A stretch of 64,000 bases of DNA from an uncultured Methanolobus sp. (GTDB lineage: Archaea > Halobacteriota > Methanosarcinia > Methanosarcinales > Methanosarcinaceae). This document shows positions 3,029-48,350 of this stretch, piece by piece. The stretch is from NCBI GenBank assembly GCA_963675495.1, contig OY776215.1:1017546-1081545 (forward strand), given 5' to 3'. The notes beneath the pieces were generated by a model that searched no databases, was not told the origin of the DNA, and was given only the letters and a program-made list of their open reading frames with translations. Positions within the stretch are counted from its first letter, which is position 1; the number at the start of each line of letters is the position of its first letter. The translations under genes were made by a program, and so were the position numbers.

Positions 3029-5671
3029 ATGAACGATATTCCATCTATTCCAAAAAGAGTCGGTGCCATTAAATTCGGTCTGATATCTCCTCGCGAAGTG
3101 AGAAAGATGAGTGTGACCGCCATCATAACTGCAGACACATATGACGATGACGGATACCCAATAGACATGGGTCTTATGGACCTGCGTCTTGGAGTTATTG
3201 ACCCTGGTTTAAAGTGTAAGACCTGCGGAAGCCGTGCAGGAGAATGCCCAGGGCACTTCGGACACATCGACCTAGTTGCACCGGTCATACATGTGGGCTT
3301 CAACAAGACCATACGAAAGGCATTACGCTCCATCTGCCGCAATTGTGGCAGACTTCTACTTACTGCCGAAAAGAAAAATGATTTCCTTGCACAACTGGAA
3401 ACTTCAAAGGAAATGGGACACCTTCCGGACAATATTATCAATGAGGTCTTCAAGGAAGCACGAAAATCAAAGAGCTGCCCATACTGCTCAACAGAACAGC
3501 TTGAGATCAAGTTCGAAAAGCCCAGTGATTATGTAGAAGACGGACACAAGCTGACACCAACGGAAATACGTGACCGCTTTGAGAATGTACCTGATGAGGA
3601 TGTAAAAGTCCTTGGAATGGACCCTGAAAGCGCAAGACCCGAATGGATGATCCTCACGGTTCTGCCAGTCCCACCAGTAACAGTAAGGCCTTCTATCACT
3701 CTGGAATCCGGCCAGCGCAGTGAAGATGACCTGACCCACAAGCTTGTGGACATCATCAGGATCAACCAGAGGTTCCAGGAGAACAGGGATGCTGGTGCAC
3801 CACAACTTATTATAGAGGACCTGTGGGAATTGCTTCAGTACCATGTTACAACATTCTTTGATAATGAAGTATCAGGCGTACCACCTGCAAGACACAGATC
3901 AGGAAGACCACTGAAGACACTTACCCAGCGTCTTAAGGGTAAGGAAGGAAGGTTCAGAGGAAGTCTGTCAGGTAAGCGTGTGAACTTCTCAGCCCGTACT
4001 GTAGTATCCCCGGACCCTAACCTTAGTATTAACGAAGTGGGAGTTCCTTTTGCAATTGCAAGACAGATGACAATACCTGAAAGGGTAACAACAAGGAACC
4101 TTGAACTACTGCGTATGTATGTGCAGCGTGGCAGCTCGGTGCACCCCGGTGCAAACTACGCTATACGCGATGACGGAAGGCGTATAAGAGTATCAGAGAT
4201 CAACAAGGAAGAGCTTGCAGAGAAGATAGAGGTCGGATGGACAGTCGAAAGACAGCTTATGGATGGGGATATTGTTCTCTTTAACAGACAGCCTTCCCTT
4301 CACAAGATGAGTATCATGGCTCACAGGGTCAAGGTACTTCCAAACAAGACATTCAGGCTTAACCCTGCAGTATGCGCGCCATACAACGCTGACTTTGACG
4401 GCGATGAAATGAACATGCACGTTCTCCAGACCGAAGAATCCAGGGCAGAAGCCAGCATTCTAATGCAAGTACAGGAGAATATCCTGTCCCCTCGTTTCGG
4501 CGGACCTATCATCGGCGGTATACACGACCACATCTCCGGATTGTTCCTGCTCACAAGGAACGAGAACGCCATCACCAAGAATGCAGCTCTTGAACTACTC
4601 AGGAAATCAGACATTAGAGTCCTTCCCGAACCTGCAAGTTACGCTGAAAACGGAGAACCACTATGGAACGGAAAACAGATCTTCAGTCAGATCCTGCCAA
4701 AGGGACTCTATCTGGAGTTCCCCGCACAGGCCTGTTTCAAGTGCGAGACCTGCAAAAAGAAGGATTGCGAATATAATGCCTATGTTGTCATAGAAGATGG
4801 GGAAATGCTTCAGGGCACTATTGATGAACAGGCTATTGGTGCTTTTAAAGGCAAAATCCTTGATAAAGTTGTGAAAGAATACAGCCCTGAAGCAGGTGCC
4901 AAGTTCGTAGATGACTTTACAAGACTCGCCATTCGCGGTGTGATGAAGACAGGACTCAGTTTTGGTATTAGTGACGAAGATATACCCAAGACTGCAAAAT
5001 TGCAGATCAATAATCTCCTTAAAGAAGCTGAAGACAAAGTAAGAGCACTAATTGAAGCTTATGAAGCAAAAGAGCTGGAACCTTTGCCAGGACGTACACT
5101 CAAAGAAACCATCGAAATGAAGATCATGCAAGAACTTGGTAAGGCCAGAGATCAGACCGGTAACATTGCAGGTCAGCAGCTTGGTCTTGAAAACTCTGCT
5201 GTGTTGATGGCAAAGTCTGGTGCAAGAGGTTCAATGCTTAACCTTACCCAGATGGCTGCCTGTGTCGGACAACAGGCGGTTCGTGGTGAAAGGATAAGAA
5301 GAGGCTATGCAGGAAGGACACTCCCACACTTTGACAAAGGTGACCTTGGTGCAGATGCTCACGGATTCGTCAAAGCAAGTTACAAGAGCGGGCTTAATCC
5401 GACAGAATATTTCTTCCACGCAATTGGTGGTCGTGAAGGTCTTGTGGACACTGCTGTCCGTACTTCCCAATCAGGTTACCTGCAAAGAAGACTTGTAAAC
5501 GCGTTGCAGGATCTTGAGGTCCAGTATGACGGTTCAGTACGTGAGACACGTGGTGTGGTCGTACAATTCAAGTACGGAGAAGATGGTATTGATTCCACAA
5601 AGAGTGACTACAGCAAACCTGAGGCAATCCACAGAATTGTCAGAATGGTCACCGGGAAAGAGGTGAACTAA
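3029..5671 (+). CDS. rpoA1: DNA-directed RNA polymerase subunit A'
   Basis: N-terminal Zn motif CKTCGSRAGECPGHFGH and catalytic NADFDGDEMN motif; 880 aa; follows rpoB' after 14 nt. Confidence 0.95.
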   Translation: MNDIPSIPKRVGAIKFGLISPREVRKMSVTAIITADTYDDDGYPIDMGLMDLRLGVIDPGLKCKTCGSRAGECPGHFGHIDLVAPVIHVGFNKTIRKALRSICRNCGRLLLTAEKKNDFLAQLETSKEMGHLPDNIINEVFKEARKSKSCPYCSTEQLEIKFEKPSDYVEDGHKLTPTEIRDRFENVPDEDVKVLGMDPESARPEWMILTVLPVPPVTVRPSITLESGQRSEDDLTHKLVDIIRINQRFQENRDAGAPQLIIEDLWELLQYHVTTFFDNEVSGVPPARHRSGRPLKTLTQRLKGKEGRFRGSLSGKRVNFSARTVVSPDPNLSINEVGVPFAIARQMTIPERVTTRNLELLRMYVQRGSSVHPGANYAIRDDGRRIRVSEINKEELAEKIEVGWTVERQLMDGDIVLFNRQPSLHKMSIMAHRVKVLPNKTFRLNPAVCAPYNADFDGDEMNMHVLQTEESRAEASILMQVQENILSPRFGGPIIGGIHDHISGLFLLTRNENAITKNAALELLRKSDIRVLPEPASYAENGEPLWNGKQIFSQILPKGLYLEFPAQACFKCETCKKKDCEYNAYVVIEDGEMLQGTIDEQAIGAFKGKILDKVVKEYSPEAGAKFVDDFTRLAIRGVMKTGLSFGISDEDIPKTAKLQINNLLKEAEDKVRALIEAYEAKELEPLPGRTLKETIEMKIMQELGKARDQTGNIAGQQLGLENSAVLMAKSGARGSMLNLTQMAACVGQQAVRGERIRRGYAGRTLPHFDKGDLGADAHGFVKASYKSGLNPTEYFFHAIGGREGLVDTAVRTSQSGYLQRRLVNALQDLEVQYDGSVRETRGVVVQFKYGEDGIDSTKSDYSKPEAIHRIVRMVTGKEVN

Positions 5672-11053: not shown

Positions 11054-12331
11054 ATGAAAATGGCAGCTGACAAACCACACATGAACTTGGCAGTTATTGG
11101 TCACATTGACCACGGCAAGTCAACCCTTGTCGGAAGATTAATGTTCGAAACAGGAGCAGTACCTGCTCACCTTATCGAGAAGTACAAGGCAGAAGCAAAA
11201 GAAAAGGGTAAAGAATCATTCGCATTCGCATGGGTCATGGACTCACTTAAGGAAGAGCGTGAAAGAGGTATCACAATCGATATCGCTCACAAGAGATTCG
11301 ACACCGACAAGTACTACTTTACAATTGTGGACTGCCCAGGCCACCGTGACTTTGTGAAGAACATGATCACCGGTGCATCCCAGGCTGACGCAGCTATCCT
11401 TGTAGTCGCCGCACCTGATGGTGTAATGGACCAGACAAAAGAGCATGTGTTCCTTTCAAGAACCCTTGGTATTAACCAGCTTATCATTGCTGTAAACAAG
11501 ATGGATGCATCAAAGTACAGCGAAGAGAGATACAATGAGGTCAAGGAACAAGTAAGCCAGCTCCTCGGTATGGTAGGATTCAAGGCATCAGAGATTCCAT
11601 TCATTCCAACCTCTGCATTCGAGGGTGACAACATATCAGGTCCAAGCGCAAACACACCATGGTACAAGGGTCCATCTATCCTTGAATCACTTGACCTCCT
11701 TGTTGAACCAGAAAAGCCAGACACACTCCCACTCAGAATTCCTGTACAGGATGCATACACCATCTCCGGTATCGGAACCGTACCAGTAGGTAGGGTCGAG
11801 ACAGGTATCATGAAGAAGGGACAGACAGTAACCTTTAACCCAAGCGGCGTTAGCGGTGAAGTCAAGTCAATCGAAATGCACCATGAAGAGCATGATCAGG
11901 CTGGACCTGGAGACAACATCGGATGGAACGTACGTGGTGTAGGTAAGAACGATGTACGCAGAGGAGATGTCTGCGGACCGTCAGACAAGCCACCTTCAGT
12001 AGCAGACGAGTTTACAGGACAGATCGTAGTCCTTCAACACCCATCCGCTATCACAGCAGGATACACACCAGTATTCCACTGCCACACAACCCAGACCGCA
12101 TGTACTCTTATGTCCATTGACAAGAAGCTTGATCCAAAGACAGGCCAGGTCAAGGAAGAGAATGCAACCTTCATTAAGGCTGGAGACGCAGCAATTGTCA
12201 CCATCAAGCCAACAAGACCAATGGTGATCGAACCAGTAAAGGAAATTCCACAGCTCGGTAGATTCGCTATCCGTGATATGGGTATGACCATTGCTGCTGG
12301 CATGTGCATGAGTGTTAAACTGAAAGAGTAA
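11054..12331 (+). CDS. tuf: Translation elongation factor 1-alpha (aEF-1alpha)
   Basis: [21 protein letters not shown] motifs. An alternative ATG lies at 11060 (MAADKPH...). Confidence 0.96.
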
Positions 12332-16214: not shown

Positions 16215-17252
16215 CTACTCCGGGTACTGACCCCATTTTTTCACGGAATCGGAAATATTCATGATAACTTCTGAAGGAACAAGATAAGGTATTTCCCCAT
16301 GGTTATCAGAAAGAATATAGCCGCCACCGTTTGCTGCCTTTTCAATTGCTTCCTTCACATGGCATTCGGTTTCCTGAACAGTCCAATGTCTCATCTCAAG
16401 TCCATTCAGGTTACCCAGCACTGATATTTTTCCATTGCATGTATTTTTTATTTCTCCAAGGTCTTCCAGTACGCTTGTGCAAATAATAGAAGTCCCTGTT
16501 TTTGCAATATCACTTATTATGGGAAGACATCTTCCTGAAGCCATATGAGTTGCAACAGGTGCGTTAATTCTGGAGATTACACTTTTGGCAACCTTAAATC
16601 CTGTTTTCCTGTAGAGTTCAGGCGGAATGATAGTTGAGGACGACACAGGATCAAAATAACAGATCGCAGTTGCTCCTGACTCTATCTGGGCATTTGCCCA
16701 TTCAATACAGAATTCTTCATTGATGCGCATAAGTTCTTCAAACTTGTCAGGTTCCTCGTATATCATATCAAGGAAATGATGAAACCCCATTTGCATACCT
16801 GGCAATGCAAAGGGAGACATAACTACTCCAATTATAGGGATATCCTCACCTGCATGTTTCTTGATGAGTTCTGTGGTCTTCAAAACTTTATTTAATTGTG
16901 GTGATTCAAAAACATCAGGTGCTTCCAGCGATCCTATATCCCCTACGTTTGAGATTATTGGCTTACCAGCGTTAGGAGGGGCATCAGAATAGAAAATAGA
17001 ATTCCTTCCCCATGCTTCAAGTTCAAGAGACGCGTAGTAAAAAGAGTAGTAACAATCATGACCGTATTTCTGCTGCATCTTTATCTGGGCCTGTGAAACC
17101 ATTTCAGGCCTTGAGAAATATTCCTCTATGGATACATTGAATTCTTTAGCTCCCTGTGTTGTAAGTAAGTTGAAGAATGGAACCCTGTCAGCTTCTTCAT
17201 AATTAAGAGCTGTCAGGACTCTTTCCATAGGAGTCATTGCTTCACTTTTCAT
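16215..17252 (-). CDS. Uroporphyrinogen-decarboxylase-family methyltransferase (MT2 type, MtaA/MtbA/MtsA-like methylcobamide:CoM methyltransferase)
   Basis: 345 aa with a URO-D-family N-terminus (MTPMERVLTALNYEEADRVPFF). 4-nt overlap with the upstream corrinoid protein gene. Confidence 0.8.
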   Translation of the reverse strand: MKSEAMTPMERVLTALNYEEADRVPFFNLLTTQGAKEFNVSIEEYFSRPEMVSQAQIKMQQKYGHDCYYSFYYASLELEAWGRNSIFYSDAPPNAGKPIISNVGDIGSLEAPDVFESPQLNKVLKTTELIKKHAGEDIPIIGVVMSPFALPGMQMGFHHFLDMIYEEPDKFEELMRINEEFCIEWANAQIESGATAICYFDPVSSSTIIPPELYRKTGFKVAKSVISRINAPVATHMASGRCLPIISDIAKTGTSIICTSVLEDLGEIKNTCNGKISVLGNLNGLEMRHWTVQETECHVKEAIEKAANGGGYILSDNHGEIPYLVPSEVIMNISDSVKKWGQYPE

Positions 17253-17890
17253 TGCGATAACCCCAGAACATCATATATCTTATTAACAGACTCCGTGGCA
17301 TCAATTGCCATAGCATCGGCACCAACTTCTTTCCAAAGATCACGGTCAAACAAAAAAGGTGCACCACCCACTATTATCTTTGCTTTGATACCTTCGTGGT
17401 CAAAGATATGTCTGAGCTTTTTGATATTAAGGGCAATATTAAGCATTAGTGTCGAAACCATCAGGACCTCGATACCATCTTCTTTGACCTTTCTGGCAAC
17501 CTTTTCAGGCCCCATATCACCATAATCATGCATATTGAATCCATTGGCCTTAAGGAATGAAGAAACGATACGTTTTCCAAGCATATGTTCATCCCCAAGA
17601 GTTGTAATACCTATTATTGGCATGTTCTTCCTGTCAGGACTCGCGGCAGGCAGTATAGATTCCATTATTTCCTCACAGATCTTGCTCGCCATATACTCCT
17701 GTGATAATGCAATCTCACCGCTTTCCCAGAGAGCCCCTATTTTTTCAAGAGTCGGTGCAATAAGCTCATGGATAAGCTCAAAAGCATTGTCGCCGGTAAA
17801 TTCTTTTTTTACGATGTTGGCTGCTGCAATTCTGTTCAGGGAAAGAAGGGCATTTTCTAGGCCCAGAACATTCACACTACTAATACGCAC
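17249..17890 (-). CDS. Corrinoid (B12-binding) protein, MtaC/MtbC/MtsB-like
   Basis: B12 lower-ligand motif DxHxxG present as GDEHMLG, with a Rossmann-like C-terminal half (VLMVSTLM..., IIVGGAPF). The start is uncertain (GTG at 17890 or a downstream GTG). Confidence 0.82.
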   Translation of the reverse strand: MRISSVNVLGLENALLSLNRIAAANIVKKEFTGDNAFELIHELIAPTLEKIGALWESGEIALSQEYMASKICEEIMESILPAASPDRKNMPIIGITTLGDEHMLGKRIVSSFLKANGFNMHDYGDMGPEKVARKVKEDGIEVLMVSTLMLNIALNIKKLRHIFDHEGIKAKIIVGGAPFLFDRDLWKEVGADAMAIDATESVNKIYDVLGLSQ

Positions 17891-18073
17891 ACCACCTGAC
17901 TCATTAATAGGGAATATGCGACTTAATTATATAAAGTTGTTATTAAAAAATATAAAAAGGGTTGCTGAGTTTAGCGGCATTGTTTTGTTAATGTGTCATT
18001 TTCAATAAAGTATGCCCTCGTTTTTTAGTAGTGTCGGGAAACAATGGGAAAAAGTATATAAGAATAAACACAA

Positions 18074-18087
18074 TTCTCAATTGTGAA
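18074..18087. promoter_or_regulatory. Palindromic operator copy 1 (TTCTCAATTGTGAA) between a TATA-like box and nadA
   Basis: 13/14 match to TTCACAATTGTGAA. It lies about 10 nt downstream of GTATATAAGA (about 18054-18063) and 58 nt upstream of the nadA ATG. Confidence 0.6.
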
Positions 18088-18144
18088 TTGATGCCACATA
18101 TGGCGAATTCAAACTAATAAAGATAGCAAACAGGATATTTGTTC

Positions 18145-19074
18145 ATGACTTACATCGAAAAAATGACTCTTGATGTAGAATCACTCAAAGAGAAGATACT
18201 GCAACTCAAAAAAGAAAAAAATGCAGTTATACTTGCCCATAATTACCAGCTCGGAGAAGTGCAGGATATAGCTGACTTTATAGGCGACTCCCTGGAACTT
18301 GCCAGAAAAGCAGCTAACCTGGATGCAGATGTAATTGTATTTTGTGGAGTTGACTTCATGGCAGAGACAGCCGCCATCCTTTCACCTGAAAAGAAAGTGC
18401 TTCTGCCCGCTGCAGATGCAAACTGCCCAATGGCTGAAATGATAAATGCAGGGGAACTCCGTGTCCTTAAGGAAAGGTTCCCGGAGGCTGCGGTGGTCTG
18501 CTATGTTAACACCACAGCAGAAGTGAAAGCAGAGAGCGATATATGCTGTACATCCTCAAATGCCGTAAAAGTGGTTGAATCACTTGATGCGGACAAGGTG
18601 ATATTCGTACCTGACAGGAATCTGGGAAGTTACGTAGCCAGGTTCACCGATAAAGAGATCATGCCCTGGGAAGGATTCTGTTTTGTACATGACAGGATAA
18701 CACCTGAAGATGTAAAGAAAGCACGTGAACTTCACCCCGATGCAGAAGTCCTTGTTCACCCGGAGTGCAGGGCTGAGGTCGTTGGCATAGCAGACCAGGT
18801 ATTCTCAACATCCGGTATGATAAAACATGTCTGCAAGAGTGACAAAAGACAATTCATTATCGGTACTGAAGTAGGGATACTTCACAGGATGAAAAAAGAC
18901 TGCCCGGAAAAATCATGTTATCCCCTATCACCACAAGCCATATGCATTACTATGAAAAGAACAGACCTTGGAAAAGTGTACAGGTCACTTGAAAGTCTCA
19001 CACCAAGGGTAACAGTGCCTGAAGATGTTGCGGACAGGGCACGTCTGGCAATTCAGAGGATGCTTGATATTTAG
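18145..19074 (+). CDS. nadA: Quinolinate synthase NadA
   Basis: NadA-type sequence (AVILAHNYQ.., FCGVDFMAET, conserved Cys residues). The ATG at 18145 is preferred over the TTG at 18139. Confidence 0.88.
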   Translation: MTYIEKMTLDVESLKEKILQLKKEKNAVILAHNYQLGEVQDIADFIGDSLELARKAANLDADVIVFCGVDFMAETAAILSPEKKVLLPAADANCPMAEMINAGELRVLKERFPEAAVVCYVNTTAEVKAESDICCTSSNAVKVVESLDADKVIFVPDRNLGSYVARFTDKEIMPWEGFCFVHDRITPEDVKKARELHPDAEVLVHPECRAEVVGIADQVFSTSGMIKHVCKSDKRQFIIGTEVGILHRMKKDCPEKSCYPLSPQAICITMKRTDLGKVYRSLESLTPRVTVPEDVADRARLAIQRMLDI

Positions 19075-19103
19075 ATTTTAGCAAAAATGTTAACTTTGGA
19101 ATT

Positions 19104-19511
19104 TTAGGAATTATGGGCTTCCCCGGGAATCCAGCGATCACCGGCATTTCCTATTTCCTTTTTCCATATAGGGACACTTTCCTTTATCCTTTCAAGGACA
19201 TACTCACACGCATCAAACGCCTCCTTTCGGTGCCCTGCACCTACGACTATCAGGAGGATATTCTCGCCCACATGTAAATCCCCGATGCGGTGAATGACAT
19301 CCACACTCTCAATGTCAAACTTTCCAAAGGCTTCATCGCGTATGGTTTCAAGCTCCCTTATTGCAACTTCTTCGTAAACTTCAAACTGGAGCATATCAAT
19401 ACCATCATCCCTCACAGTCCCAAGAAAAGTTACCAGAGCACCCATTTTACTGGTTCTTGCCTGTGAGAGCATTGAATTTACATCAAAATCATCATGTGTA
19501 ATTTTAATCAT
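19104..19511 (-). CDS. moaE: Molybdopterin synthase catalytic subunit MoaE
   Basis: MoaE-type sequence (GALVTFLGTVRDD.., IWKKE). The internal ATG at 19511 avoids overlap with the upstream gene. Confidence 0.8.
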   Translation of the reverse strand: MIKITHDDFDVNSMLSQARTSKMGALVTFLGTVRDDGIDMLQFEVYEEVAIRELETIRDEAFGKFDIESVDVIHRIGDLHVGENILLIVVGAGHRKEAFDACEYVLERIKESVPIWKKEIGNAGDRWIPGEAHNS

Positions 19512-19521
19512 ATGATCACTC

Positions 19522-20256
19522 CTATGACTTGTTGGTTTTACCACATACACTGCAATCAGGTCTTCTGGATACCTTCAGAGTTTCCATCTCCGAATGAAGA
19601 CCATTCCAGATTAGAAGCCTGTTTGTCAGAAGGCTGCCAGTACCTACCAGATACTTGATTACCTCATTGACCTGTATCATAGCGATTATACCAGGGGTCA
19701 CGCCAACAACCGGAAACACTTCGGTTGGCGGAGGTGAAGGAAAAACACAGTTAAAGCATGCACTTTCCCCGGGGATGATAGACATGGCCTGTCCGTCAAA
19801 ACCACTTATTGCCCCATGAATAAGTGGAATACCTTTTTCGTGGGCGACCTGATTGAGAAGATAACGGACATGGTAATTATCCATGGCATCAACTATGATG
19901 TCCGCGTCTCCTACAAGCTCCCTGATATTTGATTCATCTATTGTCAGATGAAATGTTTCCACATCAATGTGAGGATTGGCTTCCTGTAGCTTGTTTCCAA
20001 CAGATGATACCTTTGCTCTGCCGACGTCTGTTTCCCAATGCAATACCTGCCGGTTAAGATTGCTTAGTTCCACGGAATCGCGGTCTGCAATTCTCAGGTT
20101 CCCCACGCCTGCAACTGCAAGATAAAGTGCAATTGGACATCCAAGTCCTCCTGCACCTGCAATGAAAACCTTTGCATCTTTTAAGCGCTTCTGGCCATCC
20201 TCACCAAAAAGCATTATCTGCCTGTTGTAACGTTCAAGCTCTTCCTTGCTTAACAT
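19522..20256 (-). CDS. ThiF/MoeB/UbaA-family E1-like adenylyltransferase
   Basis: RYNRQIMLFG, Rossmann motif GAGGLGCP, and two CxxC pairs (CFNC, CSVC) typical of MoeB/UbaA. The ATG at 20256 has better spacing to GAGGA than the one at 20265. Confidence 0.85.
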   Translation of the reverse strand: MLSKEELERYNRQIMLFGEDGQKRLKDAKVFIAGAGGLGCPIALYLAVAGVGNLRIADRDSVELSNLNRQVLHWETDVGRAKVSSVGNKLQEANPHIDVETFHLTIDESNIRELVGDADIIVDAMDNYHVRYLLNQVAHEKGIPLIHGAISGFDGQAMSIIPGESACFNCVFPSPPPTEVFPVVGVTPGIIAMIQVNEVIKYLVGTGSLLTNRLLIWNGLHSEMETLKVSRRPDCSVCGKTNKS

Positions 20257-20296
20257 GATACACATTCCTCAAATCTAATAATAAAGGAGAAGGAAA

Positions 20297-21670
20297 TCAG
20301 AGATTACCCTTGTTGACCTTTATTTCATACTTTTCTGCAATTTCCTGAAGTGAGTCTGCAAGATAGTTTACCTTTTCCCATGAAAGACCATAGGTACTTA
20401 GCTTCCATGCACGAGTTGCACCAGCAAATTCTCCCACTATTCCTTTCTTTGAGAGTTCATCGGAGAAGAAGAAACCTCTTCTTTTGTGGCTGTTTGCAAC
20501 AACATCAAAGCTTCCGGTAGTGTCAACCTTTGAAAGTGCGTGCTTTCGGGGGTACTCAGATAATACTGTACTTCCTTCTATTTCAAGCAACTTATCCATG
20601 AGGAAATTAGATTTCTTCACTTCCTCTTCCCAGTTCTGTGTACGTTCCTTAACAGCGGGGAAAGAAGCTATCATTGCCATCAAAGTTGAACCCATGAGGG
20701 TACATCCAAGCATCTCGACCTCTTTCACCCCGAATTTGCGATTGGTCAGGTCACCTGTCATCTGGGTTGTCCTGAATACTACATCAGCCCATTCATCGGT
20801 AGTTGCAAGGACACCTGATGGTGCAGGGGATGCCATACTCTTGTGACCGGAGCCGACTATGAAGTCTGCACCGATTCTTTTTCCATCCACGGGCATCACA
20901 CCTACTGTGTACGCTCCATTGTAAAGGTAGGGAATATCATACTGCCAGGCAATTTTTCCAATTCCTCTGACATCATGCTCATTGGCAAGCTGATAGTCGA
21001 AATGGTCCATCATGATAAGTGCTGGAACCTTTCCAGTCTCAGCAGTAACCTCCTCGATCTTATCTGCTACCGCATCGCCTGTTATGATATTATCCTCATT
21101 GAGAGGAACTTCCTTAACAACACCACCTGCCCCTTCAACCGCAAGGAACTCAGTGTAGTGTGCCAGCGAAGAGACAATAACAGGATCACCGGGTTTCACA
21201 ATACTGGAAGTAACTGCCTGAAATCCCCTTCTTGCTCCCGGCACTACACGGGCTGTACCCATGTTAAGGAAAGCTGCAAGCTCCTGATGGAAGTCAGCAA
21301 TTGGCGGCTTGGATATCTTGTCAAGTCTGAAGGGCTTACGGCAACTGTCACAGGTAGAGTATCCGTCCCCATATGCAATGAGTGCCTTGCGAGCCTCGGG
21401 GGTTAGTCTTCCTGCTGCCTGTATGGGTTGGATGTTTACGTATTCTTCCTCACGGCTTCGAATACCCAGTGTCCCACCGATCTTAGTGACCTCAGGAACG
21501 CCGGTTCCAGCTTCCAGATCGTCTATTACCGACCTGATATGCCGTATCTGATCGTTGAACCCATCCATGTCTGCAGGACCAGTTGAACCTGGTAAGGACT
21601 GGCGCAGCGTCTCACGGATGTCTTCAAGGGCAAATAGCGCTTCAAATGTTTTCTGTGCTCTGATATCCAT
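20297..21670 (-). CDS. pscS: O-phospho-L-seryl-tRNA(Cys):Cys-tRNA synthase (SepCysS) with N-terminal extension
   Basis: PLP-lysine motif GSGHKSMASPAPSGVL, CxxC (CDSC) and a later conserved Cys, as in SepCysS. An N-terminal helical extension of about 70 aa matches the long form. Confidence 0.78.
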   Translation of the reverse strand: MDIRAQKTFEALFALEDIRETLRQSLPGSTGPADMDGFNDQIRHIRSVIDDLEAGTGVPEVTKIGGTLGIRSREEEYVNIQPIQAAGRLTPEARKALIAYGDGYSTCDSCRKPFRLDKISKPPIADFHQELAAFLNMGTARVVPGARRGFQAVTSSIVKPGDPVIVSSLAHYTEFLAVEGAGGVVKEVPLNEDNIITGDAVADKIEEVTAETGKVPALIMMDHFDYQLANEHDVRGIGKIAWQYDIPYLYNGAYTVGVMPVDGKRIGADFIVGSGHKSMASPAPSGVLATTDEWADVVFRTTQMTGDLTNRKFGVKEVEMLGCTLMGSTLMAMIASFPAVKERTQNWEEEVKKSNFLMDKLLEIEGSTVLSEYPRKHALSKVDTTGSFDVVANSHKRRGFFFSDELSKKGIVGEFAGATRAWKLSTYGLSWEKVNYLADSLQEIAEKYEIKVNKGNL

Positions 21671-21759
21671 AGGAATACCTCTTGACGCATCCTGACTGTC
21701 AATGAATAAATGTCACCGTTCGACTAAATACGTCATTAATATCATGAATTTTAAATTAA

Positions 21760-21794
21760 TTCACGATTGTGAATTGATAGTTAACAATTGTGAA
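21760..21794. promoter_or_regulatory. Palindromic operator copies 2 and 3 (TTCACGATTGTGAA, TTAACAATTGTGAA), 7 nt apart, in the divergent SepCysS / HTH-regulator intergenic region
   Basis: Each is 13/14 to the consensus. Copy 2 abuts TTAATTTAAAA on the minus strand (SepCysS side). Copy 3 abuts TATATAAAA on the plus strand (regulator side). Confidence 0.65.
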
Positions 21795-21864
21795 TATATA
21801 AAACTATTGCATAAATGAAAAGTCCAAACTAAGAAGAGAAAAGACTTTTAAGACTTAGACCTTA

Positions 21865-21878
21865 TTCACAATTGTGAG
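21865..21878. promoter_or_regulatory. Palindromic operator copy 4 (TTCACAATTGTGAG) in the leader of the HTH-regulator operon
   Basis: 13/14 match, 49 nt upstream of the ATG at 21927 and downstream of the TATA-like box at about 21795. Confidence 0.6.
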
Positions 21879-21926
21879 TAAGCTCCATTAAAAATAATCA
21901 ATTTAAATCAAGAGGAAATCAATATC

Positions 21927-22232
21927 ATGAAATTACCCTGTCAGATGATTGTCTGGGATGTTCTACCAGCCATCAGAGCAGCAATTGCAGAAGAACTTGT
22001 TAACTGCGGACTTTCTCAGCAGGAAGTCGCCAGAGAGCTGGACATGGCACCTTCGGCCGTCTCGCAATACCTTTCCAAGAAAAGAGGTTACCGCATAGTA
22101 TTTGATGAAAATGTCAAAGAATCCATACGCATTCTTGCTGATGATATGAAAGAGAATCGCGTTGATGACCTTGCAGATAGAATCTGCAGTATTTGCCGGC
22201 AATTGCGTGAAGATGACCAGCAATGCAAATGA
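21927..22232 (+). CDS. Small HTH transcriptional regulator with C-terminal Cys motif
   Basis: XRE-like HTH LSQQEVARELDMAPSAVSQYLSKKRG. C-terminal CSICRQL...QQC gives three Cys. Confidence 0.7.
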   Translation: MKLPCQMIVWDVLPAIRAAIAEELVNCGLSQQEVARELDMAPSAVSQYLSKKRGYRIVFDENVKESIRILADDMKENRVDDLADRICSICRQLREDDQQCK

Positions 22233-22280
22233 ATTAGTAAGATTCTTCGCTACTTGTGATGCTTACCCGGATGATCTTAA

Positions 22281-23465
22281 ATGCTAAACGTAAAGAGGAT
22301 AAGAAACGATTTTCCAATCCTTGCGGACATTTCCTATATGGATAATGCAGCAACCAGCCTTTCCCCTGAACAGGTAATCAGTTCCACAAACGATTTTGAA
22401 AGACACTATCGCGCCAATGTTGGAAGAGGAGTGCATCGTCTTACAAATGTAGCCTCACAGAGATATTGGCACGCGCACGAAAAAATTGCCAGATTCATTG
22501 ACGGGGAACATGGTACAATCGTTCTTACTAAAAACACAACAGAAGCCATCAATATGGTTGCCTGTGGGACAAAGTGGAATAAAGGAGACAACGTGGTCAC
22601 CACTATCCTTGAACATCACTCTAATTTTCTTCCGTGGATGCGTTTGCATAATAGAGGCGTAGATATTTCAGTAGTAAGAGCGGACCTTTATGGTTCATTT
22701 AGCATTGGAGACTTTGAAGCCACCATTAATGAGAACACAAAAATTGTTGCAGTTACCCATGCTTCAAATGTACTTGGAAACCTGCTGCCAATGAAAGAGA
22801 TATCCGCCATCTGTAAGGATTACGGAGCGAAACTGCTTATAGACGGAGCGCAATCCGTCCCACACATCCCTGTCAATGTGAAAGAACTAGGCTGTGATTA
22901 TCTCTGCTTTTCAGGTCATAAGATGCTAGGACCCACCGGTACAGGAATACTGTGGATGAAAGAGCCAGATATTCAGCCACTTATGCTTGGTGGCGGTATG
23001 ATAGGAAGAGTATCGTCCAATGATTACACTCTTGCTGAAGATTATCAGAAGTATGAAGCGGGAACCCCCAATATATCGGGCATGATAGGACTTGCACGAG
23101 CTGTTGATTATCTTGAAGATATCGGAATGCAGAATGTAAGAGAACATGAGGAATACCTGACGAAAAAACTGCTTGAAGGACTTCAAGATATCAGTGATGT
23201 AACTGTTTACGGACCTGAAGCCAACCACGAAAGAATAGGAGTAGTATCCTTCAATATCGAAGGAATGCACCCTCATGAAGTAGCACATATCCTTGATGAA
23301 GGAGCAGCCATAATGGCCAGGTCAGGAGAACATTGCTGTCAGCCCCTGATGGAGTATCTGGGACTGGAGAATGGCACTGTAAGGGCAAGCCTCTACCTGT
23401 ACAACACCGAAGAAGAAGTTGACCTTCTGATAGCTACAATGGAAGAAATGACAAGGAGATTATGA
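22281..23465 (+). CDS. Cysteine desulfurase, SufS/CsdA-type (class V aminotransferase)
   Basis: PLP-lysine FSGHKMLGPTGTG and active-site loop RSGEHCCQP (group II cysteine desulfurase pattern). Confidence 0.85.
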   Translation: MLNVKRIRNDFPILADISYMDNAATSLSPEQVISSTNDFERHYRANVGRGVHRLTNVASQRYWHAHEKIARFIDGEHGTIVLTKNTTEAINMVACGTKWNKGDNVVTTILEHHSNFLPWMRLHNRGVDISVVRADLYGSFSIGDFEATINENTKIVAVTHASNVLGNLLPMKEISAICKDYGAKLLIDGAQSVPHIPVNVKELGCDYLCFSGHKMLGPTGTGILWMKEPDIQPLMLGGGMIGRVSSNDYTLAEDYQKYEAGTPNISGMIGLARAVDYLEDIGMQNVREHEEYLTKKLLEGLQDISDVTVYGPEANHERIGVVSFNIEGMHPHEVAHILDEGAAIMARSGEHCCQPLMEYLGLENGTVRASLYLYNTEEEVDLLIATMEEMTRRL

Positions 23466-24269
23466 ATGTACAGGGAAGTCGATTGCATAAAAGGAGATGA
23501 TGATTCCTTTGAACTGGAAATGCATCCAGTTATAGAAGAGATGCCACTTGCTGTTACAGTGAATGGGAGGCATGCCCTTACAGCAATGATAAGTCCTGAC
23601 CTGCTCCGGGAATTCATCCTTGGTTTTCTTTTCACGGAAGGCATAATCAAGGACATATACGAGGTCGAGTCCATAAGGATAGAAGACAGTAATGCCAGTG
23701 TACTGTCGAAAAATCCTTTCAAGATACTTGCATCAAAGAAAACAGTCCTCAGTGGTTGTGGGGGATCGATGTCTTATCTTGATATTGTCAAGCTTCCTGA
23801 AATAAATTCAAGCCTTCGCCTTGATTCTGAAACTATACGTGATTCTGTGAAAGAAGCTCTTGATTCAAAGCTTCACGTACTTACAGGAGGTATACATGTA
23901 GTCGGACTGTACAATGCCAGCGGAAAAGTGTGCGTTGTTGAGGACATAGGCAGGCACAATGCGCTTGACAAGATAATTGGATATGCACTTGAGAACGACA
24001 TCGACCTATCCAGCACATACATCATCTGTTCCGGCAGGATATCATCGGAAATGGTGAGAAAATGTCTGACTGCAAATATACCTGTTGTCGTTTCAAGAGG
24101 AGCAACTACTACACTTGCCATAGATATAGCAAAATCCCGTGGTCTTACCATTGTAGGTTTTGTGCGGAGCAAAAAAATGAATGTTTACTCATGGGGAAAC
24201 AGAATAACAGATATACCTTCTCCAGTTTCCGAATCTCTGGTGGATGCAGCACAGAACAAAACAGAATAA
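23466..24269 (+). CDS. fdhD: FdhD-family sulfurtransferase (formate dehydrogenase/Moco sulfuration accessory protein)
   Basis: FdhD-type sequence (LAVTVNGRH, LGFLFTEGII, SGCGG, EDIGRHNALDK). The ATG directly follows the desulfurase stop (TGAATG). Confidence 0.82.
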   Translation: MYREVDCIKGDDDSFELEMHPVIEEMPLAVTVNGRHALTAMISPDLLREFILGFLFTEGIIKDIYEVESIRIEDSNASVLSKNPFKILASKKTVLSGCGGSMSYLDIVKLPEINSSLRLDSETIRDSVKEALDSKLHVLTGGIHVVGLYNASGKVCVVEDIGRHNALDKIIGYALENDIDLSSTYIICSGRISSEMVRKCLTANIPVVVSRGATTTLAIDIAKSRGLTIVGFVRSKKMNVYSWGNRITDIPSPVSESLVDAAQNKTE

Positions 24270-24281
24270 AATATCCCTCGG

Positions 24282-24476
24282 TCAGCCACCGAATACAACC
24301 TGCATTATACGAATATCATCACAGTTATTGAGTACAGTATCCACAGGAATGATATGCCCATCCCTTGACACAAGCACTTCTCCCTGGCTGATCTTCAGCC
24401 CACGCAGCAACTCTTCAACAGTAATTGGTCCTAAATTCATTTCTCCGGTTTTACCGGATGGTAATTTTACTTTCAT
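24282..24476 (-). CDS. Ubiquitin-like beta-grasp sulfur carrier / small archaeal modifier (MoaD/ThiS/SAMP family)
   Basis: 64 aa ending in ...QVVFGG directly before the stop, giving the diglycine C-terminus. Its size and pattern match ThiS/SAMP-like proteins. Confidence 0.75.
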   Translation of the reverse strand: MKVKLPSGKTGEMNLGPITVEELLRGLKISQGEVLVSRDGHIIPVDTVLNNCDDIRIMQVVFGG

Positions 24477-24647
24477 GGTTCTGCCTGAATAAGTGATAAT
24501 AATAAAATGAGGAATTTAGACTTTCAGATTAGTACGTTTTTTAGCAGGAGTCATGATAACTCCTGCAATAAAGGTCGAGAAGACCACAACCCAAGGCCCG
24601 GATTCAAGCTGTGATGAATGGTTCCGGAACCTTGGAGAACGTTTTTC

Positions 24648-24661
24648 TTCACAATTGTGAA
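24648..24661. promoter_or_regulatory. Palindromic operator copy 5 (perfect TTCACAATTGTGAA)
   Basis: Perfect 14-bp palindrome in the 420-bp gap between the SAMP-like gene and the MATE gene, followed on the plus strand by TATGTATTATAA. Confidence 0.55.
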
Positions 24662-24896
24662 TATGTATTATAAGCACCTGTAATATTTAAGACTTTTGTT
24701 CGTGAGAGTACAAACTGTTATTACGAGCATATTCTTATAAAAGGGAAAAGAAAAAGATAACAAAACTCATAAACCGGCAATATAATTCTGTTTTCGCGGG
24801 TAGAAATACCATTTCTCACATCATATTTCTTACATAGTCAGACAAAAAAAACTTCGTAATAAATTACTTATTCACACATTTGAAATAAGACACTGT

Positions 24897-47595: not shown

Positions 47596-47790
47596 TTACT
47601 TGGTTCCTTCAGGATCCTTTATCTCAATTATATCCGCTACGGGAGCATTCTTTTTTACGGATTCAATTCCATGCATACAAGCAGCTTTGCTCGAATATGC
47701 CTGACCTGTTGCGATTACTTCTCCGTTTGGAGCTTTTAGCCTGAATCTGTATTTTCCAATCTTGTCTGTGAACACTTCAAATTTTGGCAT
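47596..47790 (-). CDS. DUF1508 (YegP-like) protein
   Basis: 64 aa: FEVF.DK.GKYRFRLKA.NGEVIA.GQAYSSK..C..GIESVKKNA is the YegP repeat pattern. Confidence 0.7.
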   Translation of the reverse strand: MPKFEVFTDKIGKYRFRLKAPNGEVIATGQAYSSKAACMHGIESVKKNAPVADIIEIKDPEGTK

Positions 47791-48350
47791 TTTATCACTT
47801 TCTCCTTTAATTCAAAATTGGGAAAATATACACTAACAATATTCTCCCCCAATAAACATTATAAGTGTCTATTAAAAAAGTTTGTGATTTTATGCACTAG
47901 TTGAATGGACATTCCAAAGTTGTTGCATGCAACACAAAACGTGAAAATAGATAATGAAATAAAAAGAAAATAAAGGAGATGAAGATTCATCCGGCATCGA
48001 AGTATTGAGATATAATAACGAGAAAAGAGTTCCGGCATAAAGACATTAGAATTGAATACATTGATTCTTCAAAGTTCCGAAAGCACCTATTGAACATCAC
48101 TGCATTTCAAATATTATTGAAACCGTCACCTTTAAATATAGATTAATTAATTATATATTATCGGTTTTGTAAGAATACTCCAATACCGCGCTGATGAGTT
48201 TCATGAGATATTAAATTTGGTAAAAATGAAATGCTCGAACTTGATTCGAATCCCACGGATACCATTGTCCAGAAACATCATTTGGATTGAGACTTGCTTG
48301 GACAGCTATGGAAAAGCTTGGTGAATTAACAACAAACAGAGGATATTAAA

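Follow-up and report, generated by a model that had tools for sequence, protein, structure and literature searches.

We analysed a 64-kb stretch of DNA from an uncultured Methanolobus species (contig OY776215.1; the whole stretch is called the window below), in which a 14-bp palindrome recurs next to genes for sulfur trafficking, cysteine synthesis and a small Cys-rich helix-turn-helix (HTH) protein. The first of these genes, nadA (18145–19074, plus strand; PF02445, E = 6e-129; NF006878), encodes quinolinate synthase, a [4Fe-4S] enzyme; alignment places its start at a conserved ATG at 18145, and the mechanically called open reading frame (ORF) begins at a TTG at 18139. An operon on the minus strand comprises SepCysS (20297–21670; NF006810, 618 bits; TIGR02539, 404 bits), an ubaA/moeB-type E1 adenylyltransferase gene for sulfur-carrier proteins (19522–20265; PF00899, E = 9.8e-77) and, last, moaE for the catalytic subunit of molybdopterin synthase (19104–19550; PF02391, E = 1.3e-33; start codon uncertain). 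Among NCBIfam models, the E1 protein matched MoeB and UbaA, in each case short of the equivalog cut-off. SepCysS carries an N-terminal extension of ~60 residues (a SepCysSN-type fusion), its NCBIfam match beginning at residue 61–70. A plus-strand operon encodes the 101-residue HTH protein (21927–22232; HTH_3, 25.9 bits), a cysteine desulfurase of the SufS/CsdA family (22281–23465; PF00266, E = 9e-127; TIGR01979, 441 bits, just short of the cut-off of 475) and FdhD, the sulfurtransferase for the molybdenum cofactor of formate and formylmethanofuran dehydrogenases (23466–24269; PF02634, E = 4e-67; TIGR00129, 197 bits). Facing it on the minus strand is a gene for a 64-residue SAMP2/ThiS-like sulfur carrier with a C-terminal GG (24282–24476; PF21965, E = 1.6e-7; PF02597), which adjoins ttuA in two related loci (L021 and L095). 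For all of these genes, Pfam and NCBIfam agreed with the identities proposed in a first-pass annotation of the same DNA.

We searched the window for the palindrome TTCACAATTGTGAA, allowing mismatches, with 100 dinucleotide-preserving shuffles as control. At one mismatch or fewer there are exactly five copies: putative operators 1 (TTCTCAATTGTGAA, 18074–18087), 2 (TTCACGATTGTGAA, 21760–21773), 3 (TTAACAATTGTGAA, 21781–21794) and 4 (TTCACAATTGTGAG, 21865–21878), each with one mismatch, and operator 5 (TTCACAATTGTGAA, 24648–24661), with none. These are the same five copies, in sequence and position, that the first-pass annotation had listed, and all five lie between genes, as it had said. Up to two mismatches gave seven matches where 0.73 were expected, a count that none of the 100 shuffles reached. 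Scores under a matrix built from sites of related genomes were bimodal, with the five operators at 21.6–24.7 bits (operator 1 lowest, operator 5 highest) and the next best sequences at 12.8 and 9.9 bits, which agrees with the earlier observation that the motif does not occur elsewhere in the 64 kb. A near-match at 11318–11331 (TTTACAATTGTGGA) falls within the coding sequence of EF-1alpha, where it encodes FTIVD, and was dismissed as a chance match. The 9.9-bit match at 47811–47824 (TTCAAAATTGGGAA) was rejected for two mismatches that both hit invariant core positions, and is probably non-functional; it sits between a TATA-like box and a 64-residue ORF (47599–47790, minus strand) that appears to resemble YegP/DUF1508.

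The operators bear a regular relation to conserved core promoter elements (start sites in what follows are predictions from sequence). Upstream of nadA, a transcription factor B recognition element (BRE) and TATA-like box (18051–18062, plus strand; the GGAAAAAGTATATAAG region) is kept in an alignment of 12 Methanolobus nadA upstream regions, and operator 1, centred at ~+22 from the TATA centre, covers the predicted start site. Copy 1 does therefore lie between a TATA-like box and nadA, as had been proposed. The regulator-sufS-fdhD operon has a BRE and TATA box, GAAAAGACTTTTAAGAC (21838–21854, plus strand), whose columns are invariant or nearly so in 12 Methanolobus loci. Because the plus-strand operon has this box of its own, we assign the other TATA box of the intergenic region (21795–21804, conserved in the alignment) to the minus strand, where it reads GTTTTATATA and would serve SepCysS-ubaA-moaE; relatives have TATATAAAAC, TATATAAGAC and similar sequences there. 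Operator 3 abuts this box at ~+12 from its centre and operator 2 is the distal one at ~+33.

This arrangement changes part of the first-pass picture, in which copies 2 and 3 each abutted a TATA box and between them served both operons. The pairing of copy 3 with the SepCysS TATA box stands; relatives do not keep the TATA box that had been seen left of copy 2, and both copies lie 3' of the conserved box that faces SepCysS. Operator 4 lies ~10 nt 3' of the conserved regulator BRE/TATA (GAAAAGnCTTTTAAGAT), its centre ~22 nt 3' of the TATA box, and so covers the predicted start site of the regulator itself. It keeps the putative autoregulatory role first suggested for it, at the predicted start site rather than deep in the leader.

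On the minus strand upstream of the SAMP gene, a TATA box (24683–24691, CTTAAATAT; its TTAAATA columns are invariant in the alignment) is followed at ~+10 from its centre by a degenerate second operator (24671–24683, reading ttacaggtgctta on the minus strand), found by aligning SAMP upstream regions, where relatives carry TCACAATTGTGTA. Operator 5 is the distal member of this pair at ~+32. The same TATA-operator arrangement recurs in two further loci, L023 and L077, and a TATA-operator-operator layout is also found at the cysK promoter of Methanofollis. Operators thus come either singly at ~+22 or paired at ~+11 and +33, with conserved TATA boxes 10–33 nt upstream of operator centres. In alignments of three intergenic regions, the operator columns and TATA-like boxes form the best-conserved stretch.

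Conservation within the genus was followed in one genome per species, a set of 15 Methanolobus and 2 Methanocalculus loci that encode the HTH protein. The motif stands upstream of nadA, SepCysS, regulator and SAMP orthologues in the Methanolobus genomes (n = 15), and in loci that lack SepCysS it stands upstream of ubaA instead. At nadA it is kept in 11 Methanolobus loci and, outside these, in L021 and L023. M. vulcani and M. bombayensis have no sufS-fdhD and SAMP comes right after the regulator gene, yet the promoters of both genes keep their sites. Throughout, the operators hold their positions at orthologous promoters while the flanking intergenic sequence diverges. Perfect copies are also present in Methanocalculus.

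The association extends beyond the genus. Orthologues of the HTH protein with 63–72% identity are encoded on contigs of four further lineages, each with perfect or one-mismatch copies of the 14-mer, perfect ones among them in every lineage. Methanomethylovorans hollandica has one site, upstream of a tRNA-Cys-SepCysS unit with an O-acetylhomoserine sulfhydrylase-type gene. Methanofollis aquaemaris has one site between iscS-iscU-thiF-moaD-moaE and the regulator-sufS-fdhD operon and two between cysK-cysE-SAMP-ttuA and nadA, and Methanoculleus has one between iscU-thiF-moaD-moaE-ycaO-tfuA and the regulator gene. A Methanoregulaceae-like metagenome-assembled genome (L023) has eight, which precede tRNA-Cys-SepCysS, regulator-larE-fdhD, thiN-thiL, nadA and a radical-SAM gene, or lie between a desulfurase gene and DUF1890/DUF1894. 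LarE, a sacrificial sulfur transferase, was identified at 270 bits; the radical-SAM protein is LipS2-like or a variant of it. In almost every orthologous locus, including those of Methanomicrobiales, a site lies 20–57 nt upstream of the regulator ATG. In Methanomicrobiales no target is stronger or more constant than iscS-iscU, which is divergent from the regulator gene in Methanofollis, Methanoculleus and metagenomic contigs.

We also noted larE (L023, 8384–9193), the gene for the LipS2-like radical-SAM protein (L051, 1551–2582) and ycaO-tfuA (L146, 4206–6045), the last encoding the thioamidation pair for MCR, as units that appear, by position, to be operator-controlled on Methanomicrobiales-like contigs.

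A census of sites with at most one mismatch covered 372 kb, made up of the window and 30 loci. It returned 77 sites, every one intergenic (77/77) and nearly all adjoining the regulator gene, sulfur or iron-sulfur (Fe-S) genes or tRNA-Cys; only four of the 77 had no classified neighbour within 350 nt. By our own arithmetic, chance would yield ~0.06 such sites in 372 kb. Enrichment at promoters of sulfur and Fe-S genes and conservation upstream of orthologues in related genomes were the checks that the first-pass annotation had set for its proposal that nadA, SepCysS-ubaA-moaE, HTH-sufS-fdhD and SAMP form one regulon; the former holds over these 372 kb and the latter at orthologous promoters in two orders, Methanosarcinales and Methanomicrobiales.

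A metagenome scan blind to gene content gave the same gene set. We searched for two CACAATTGTG cores 3–30 nt apart and obtained 80 loci, nine of which (L038, L045, L051, L054, L077, L082, L087, L093 and L095) had both full-motif flanks and recognisable genes. All nine show this set: regulator divergent from iscS-iscU-thiF-moaD-moaE, larE, fdhD, SAMP-ttuA, radical-SAM, nadA and tRNA-Cys. Most of the 80 were set aside as unrelated repeats or chance occurrences, among them the Bacteroidetes-like loci L062 and L070 and the arrays L084, L088, L100 and L101. L100 (794–1334) carries GTCACAATTGTGAA-like units at intervals of ~38 bp, and no sulfur genes could be recognised there; it resembles a tandem repeat that has the core in common but is otherwise unrelated.

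Such arrays raise the question of whether the palindromes are regulatory at all. They could be due to chance, be remnants of repeats or mobile elements, or be a by-product of the CAATTG restriction site; CAATTG is indeed a type II restriction site, and CACAATTGTG repeats do occur on unrelated metagenome contigs. Against this, none of the shuffles matched the observed count, the sites keep their position at orthologous promoters in two orders amid diverged flanks, none lies in coding sequence, and we noticed no terminal repeats or transposase context. On these grounds we regard a non-regulatory origin as effectively refuted.

The promoter of operator 5 proved to have a target other than the one first assigned to it. 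On the minus strand at 24589–24638, between operator 5 and the SAMP gene, lies a decayed tRNA-Cys(GCA) gene, recognised by its alignment with intact tRNA-Cys genes in L001, L002, L006, L007, L010 and L011. Fifty of 72 nt are left; the acceptor and T-arm halves are kept, and the loss of ~24 nt has removed the anticodon arm and part of the D arm. Neither ARAGORN nor Rfam calls this remnant. Six Methanolobus species have an operator pair upstream of SAMP followed, 6–12 nt on, by an intact tRNA-Cys(GCA), and at tRNA-Cys promoters in general the operator ends 6–12 nt before the mature 5' end. An operator also precedes tRNA-Cys in L023 (operator, 7 nt, tRNA-Cys, SepCysS), in L093 and at two tRNA-Cys genes of L077; in M. 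hollandica the distance is ~100 nt. Several other Methanolobus species show a different, independent decay of the same copy, from which it follows that those genomes, like that of the window, should have another tRNA-Cys gene elsewhere. Copy 5 is located upstream of SAMP, as had been noted, and by these alignments its ancestral target is the tRNA-Cys gene, decayed in the window genome.

The operators and the TATA box are nevertheless retained where the tRNA-Cys has decayed, and in two species only 47 nt separate the tRNA-Cys from the SAMP start codon, which argues that the promoter also drives SAMP. The leader between the remnant and SAMP contains a conserved hairpin (24544–24566, minus strand; GCAGGAG-N9-CTCCTGC) in which M. 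profundi (L012) shows one compensatory change, G-C to A-U. Folding of the entire leader (171 nt) gives z = -4.2. The hairpin may be a processing or stabilising element. A small ORF in the leader (MTPAKKR...) was rejected, its frame not being conserved and the region forming the conserved hairpin.

In M. hollandica, a gene just upstream of the operator-tRNA-Cys-SepCysS unit (L019, 14750–15094, minus strand) encodes a free-standing 114-residue protein that consists of the C-terminal DALR_2 and anticodon-binding domains of CysRS. It may be a tRNA-Cys-binding accessory factor.

Each site lies at a TATA box or shortly 3' of it. Operators at this position repress by blocking recruitment of RNA polymerase, as for NrpR, MDR1, LrpA and TrmB, and archaeal activators normally bind upstream of the BRE. 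We propose that a dimer of the HTH protein on the operator would block polymerase recruitment and so repress four promoters in the window, those of nadA, SepCysS-ubaA-moaE, regulator-sufS-fdhD and tRNA-Cys(remnant)-SAMP. The repressor would remain on DNA when sulfur and Fe-S clusters are in sufficient supply and leave when they are short, giving negative feedback. If instead the HTH protein activated these genes, or acted both ways, the sulfur genes would be switched on by its cofactor-loaded form. Some archaeal regulators, SurR among them, do activate as well as repress, and between cysK and nadA of Methanofollis one possible TATA box has the operators on its upstream side. We nonetheless think activation unlikely, since the nadA, regulator, SepCysS and tRNA-Cys promoters all have the TATA box upstream and the predicted start within or between operators, the very position that represses in the four systems above.

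The 101-residue HTH protein is the most likely binder of the palindrome, probably as a dimer: its gene constantly adjoins a site, a site is found at a near-fixed distance upstream of that gene, and a palindrome suits a dimeric HTH protein. The protein passes the HTH_3 (PF01381) threshold by a small margin (25.9 bits against a cut-off of 23, residues 20–53), and many of its 890 homologues carry no precomputed Pfam hit. The public gene call, 100% identical to residues 7–101, has 95 residues and starts at Met7, which leaves out a conserved cysteine, Cys5; the start at 21927 is likelier because the N-terminus MKLPCQ is conserved in homologues. In 16 orthologues, drawn from both orders, there is no exchange at Cys5, Cys87 or Cys90; Cys100 is almost invariant, and so is the recognition-helix region PSA(V/I)SQY.S.KRGY. 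The wider family comprises 1739 clusters at E ≤ 1e-3 and 624 at E ≤ 1e-10, named in databases only 'transcriptional regulator' or 'helix-turn-helix domain-containing protein'. Its signature is an N-terminal PC(Q/E)xxVW, an HTH with AxSQYxxxKRG and a C-terminal CxxC plus a further Cys, all of which the window protein has; apart from the fourth Cys, the elements are invariant in the 16 orthologues and 83–97% conserved over 114 representatives. Cys5, Cys87 and Cys90 reach 83–87%, and the fourth (Cys100), whose position varies, 56%.

No relative beyond the HTH emerged from a sequence profile search of the PDB, where the best match was a lambda-repressor-like protein (E = 0.012; HTH only). An AlphaFold2 (AF2) model has five helices (pLDDT 75) and no Foldseek match in the PDB at E < 0.5. 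Scores for ArsR/SmtB-type models stayed below their cut-offs (NF033788, 17.8 bits against 55; PF01022, 17.3 against 22), and an Rrf2 domain (PF02082) was absent from the Pfam and NCBIfam matches at E ≤ 0.01.

The palindrome might instead be bound by a transcription factor encoded elsewhere, the HTH gene being merely one member of the regulated set. In favour of this, M. hollandica keeps an operator at tRNA-Cys-SepCysS even though its regulator gene has none upstream. Yet among the called genes of the examined loci, the HTH gene is the only gene for a DNA-binding protein that recurs beside the sites; other transcription factor genes, such as those for ArsR and DtxR in L021, are not conserved neighbours. 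In both orders the site keeps a near-constant distance upstream of the HTH gene, as is usual for an autoregulated gene, and a perfect 14-bp palindrome suits a dimeric HTH protein. We therefore rate a separate binder as very unlikely.

Some findings speak against a regulon under control of the HTH protein, or against parts of that reading. In M. hollandica there is no recognisable site upstream of the regulator gene, and a homologue in Methanocorpusculum (L144) has neither motif nor sulfur context within 8 kb. A Thermoplasmata homologue (L145) likewise has neither, so that the regulon function is not to be extended to the whole protein family. Divergent promoters allow a reading besides repression: at nadA of Methanofollis, for instance, one of the two TATA candidates lies 3' of the operators. 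Control of SAMP in the window requires read-through of a 170-nt leader. The conserved cysteines could simply be structural zinc ligands, as in the XRE-type antitoxin MqsA, and AF2 confidence drops below 50 at residues 1–8 and 97–101, that is, at Cys5 and Cys100, leaving the model too uncertain to judge a metal site. Over a complete genome the sites could conceivably include unrelated genes. With these points taken into account, we still consider it highly probable that the palindromes mark a regulon that is genuine, conserved and under the control of the HTH protein encoded beside them.

The predicted regulon spans Methanosarcinales and Methanomicrobiales. Its core, as judged from the genes behind the sites, is sulfur mobilisation and trafficking, with desulfurases, IscU, E1, ubiquitin-like carriers, MoaD/E, TtuA, LarE, FdhD and ThiN. 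It also appears to take in cysteine supply (SepCysS, a dedicated tRNA-Cys copy and CysK/CysE) and NadA. NadA, a constant member, has two possible links to the other targets: it is a [4Fe-4S] enzyme, and its pathway feeds nicotinic acid adenine dinucleotide, the substrate of LarE.

As to the signal, the likeliest role of the four conserved cysteines is to bind an Fe-S cluster or to serve as a sensor of the thiol or persulfide type. With a cluster, feedback would be through Fe-S, and iscS-iscU is the target kept most constantly in Methanomicrobiales; we give a cluster as the signal a chance that approaches but does not exceed even. A different signal would go with structural zinc and a small-molecule effector such as cysteine, O-acetylserine, phosphoserine or sulfide, or with persulfidation or oxidation as in CstR, SqrR and SurR; this concerns only the signal and leaves the existence of the regulon untouched. 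Cysteine and sulfur carriers are as central to the regulon as Fe-S assembly is, and the fourth Cys position varies across the family, both of which suit such a sensor. Nothing tells against it directly, though cluster-sensing feedback classically acts on iscS-iscU, which in Methanomicrobiales is the strongest target and the most constant one. We regard sensing other than by Fe-S as a serious possibility, if somewhat short of even.

The nearest functional parallels are IscR, the bacterial Rrf2-family [2Fe-2S] repressor of iscRSUA, and CymR and SufR, which share the likely logic of an autoregulated repressor beside desulfurase and scaffold genes under sulfur or Fe-S feedback. The likeness to IscR includes the iscS-iscU targets in Methanomicrobiales and conserved cysteines as candidate cluster ligands; autoregulation and control of Fe-S assembly genes are indicated here by site position only. 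In contrast to IscR, the protein lacks an Rrf2 match and has a marginal HTH_3 one. Its cysteines (Cys5, Cys87, Cys90 and Cys100, an N-terminal Cys5 followed by CxxC-x9-C) do not follow the IscR ligand pattern of Cys92, Cys98, Cys104 and His107 or an equivalent spacing. Its operator also differs, and the predicted regulon lies on archaeal TATA/BRE promoters and includes SepCysS, tRNA-Cys, SAMP/E1, MoaE, FdhD, LarE and NadA.

Three other systems resemble it in part. NrpR, the nitrogen repressor of methanogens, occurs in the same organisms and uses palindromic operators, single or in tandem, just 3' of the TATA box over the start site, a placement like that found here; it is an unrelated protein of ~60 kDa that senses 2-oxoglutarate and acts on nitrogen genes through GGAA-N6-TTCC. 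SurR of Thermococcales, with its CxxC redox switch, is likewise archaeal and tied to sulfur status, with cysteines as the switch (a prediction in our case), but it has two ArsR-type winged HTH domains, recognises GTTn3AAC and controls hydrogenase versus S0-reduction genes; Pfam, NCBIfam and PDB profile searches detected no relation between it and the 101-residue protein. XRE/lambda-Cro-type Cys4 proteins such as the antitoxin MqsA also combine a short HTH_3-type region with a four-cysteine metal site (a candidate one here) and bind palindromic operators as dimers, as is predicted here; MqsA, however, is an antitoxin, and its zinc is structural and located in the domain at the N-terminus. No significant XRE- or MqsA-type sequence or fold match was found (Foldseek E ≥ 0.5).

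A full-text search of the published literature returned no description of the motif or of the 101-residue regulator, and no regulator of sulfur assimilation, Fe-S assembly or tRNA-dependent cysteine synthesis in methanogens, in line with the first-pass annotation, which knew of no description of such a circuit; only one paper (Mukai et al., 2017) offered context on gene neighbourhoods. A feedback repressor regulon is a known kind of system; what would be new is the regulator family, the archaeal promoter logic and the tRNA gene as a target. Few organisms have as high a demand for Fe-S clusters and sulfur as methanogens, and the analysis supplies a concrete candidate regulator, an exact operator sequence and a predicted regulon over two orders.

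The operators also bear on earlier work on SepCysS. Clade VII SepCysS, the SepCysSN fusion, is often encoded beside tRNA-Cys, sulfur genes and tRNA-Thr-ED, and it was suggested that extra copies may, in certain conditions, raise the RNA-dependent synthesis of cysteine (Mukai et al., 2017; PMC5424206). The gene association reported there is the one seen here, with L023 an exact match; the paper itself is silent on promoters, operators and regulators (the strings 'promoter' and 'regulat' have no occurrences in it). In L023, a tRNA-Thr-ED gene (3036–3521, minus strand) lies downstream of SepCysS and further genes, as in the clade VII neighbourhood; the genes between encode a pyridoxal phosphate enzyme of Cys/Met metabolism (O-acetylhomoserine sulfhydrylase type), a MetX-like alpha/beta-hydrolase and a CBS protein. 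The operator regulon is a candidate control element for such clusters.

The window holds one further feature near these promoters. Directly upstream of the nadA promoter, two minus-strand genes (16215–17890) resemble a methyltransferase and its corrinoid protein (URO-D family and B12-binding domains); they have no operator, and the neighbourhood is kept in most Methanolobus loci.

The results also allow a more far-reaching reading: in methanogens a dedicated tRNA-Cys gene would be under a specific metabolite- or cluster-sensing transcription factor, co-repressed as a biosynthetic scaffold together with SepCysS, sulfur carriers and Fe-S assembly genes, by a repressor from a widespread, hitherto uncharacterised archaeal family of Cys4, possibly Fe-S, HTH proteins that would be the counterpart of IscR and CymR. 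We hold this full scheme to be evenly balanced between right and wrong. If it is true, the extra SepCysS and tRNA-Cys copies (Mukai et al., 2017) would be explained as a conditionally expressed module. Confirmation would also add what is, to our knowledge, one of few examples of a tRNA gene controlled by a transcription factor specific to a pathway, and the family, with its more than 600 protein clusters, would have its first assigned function.

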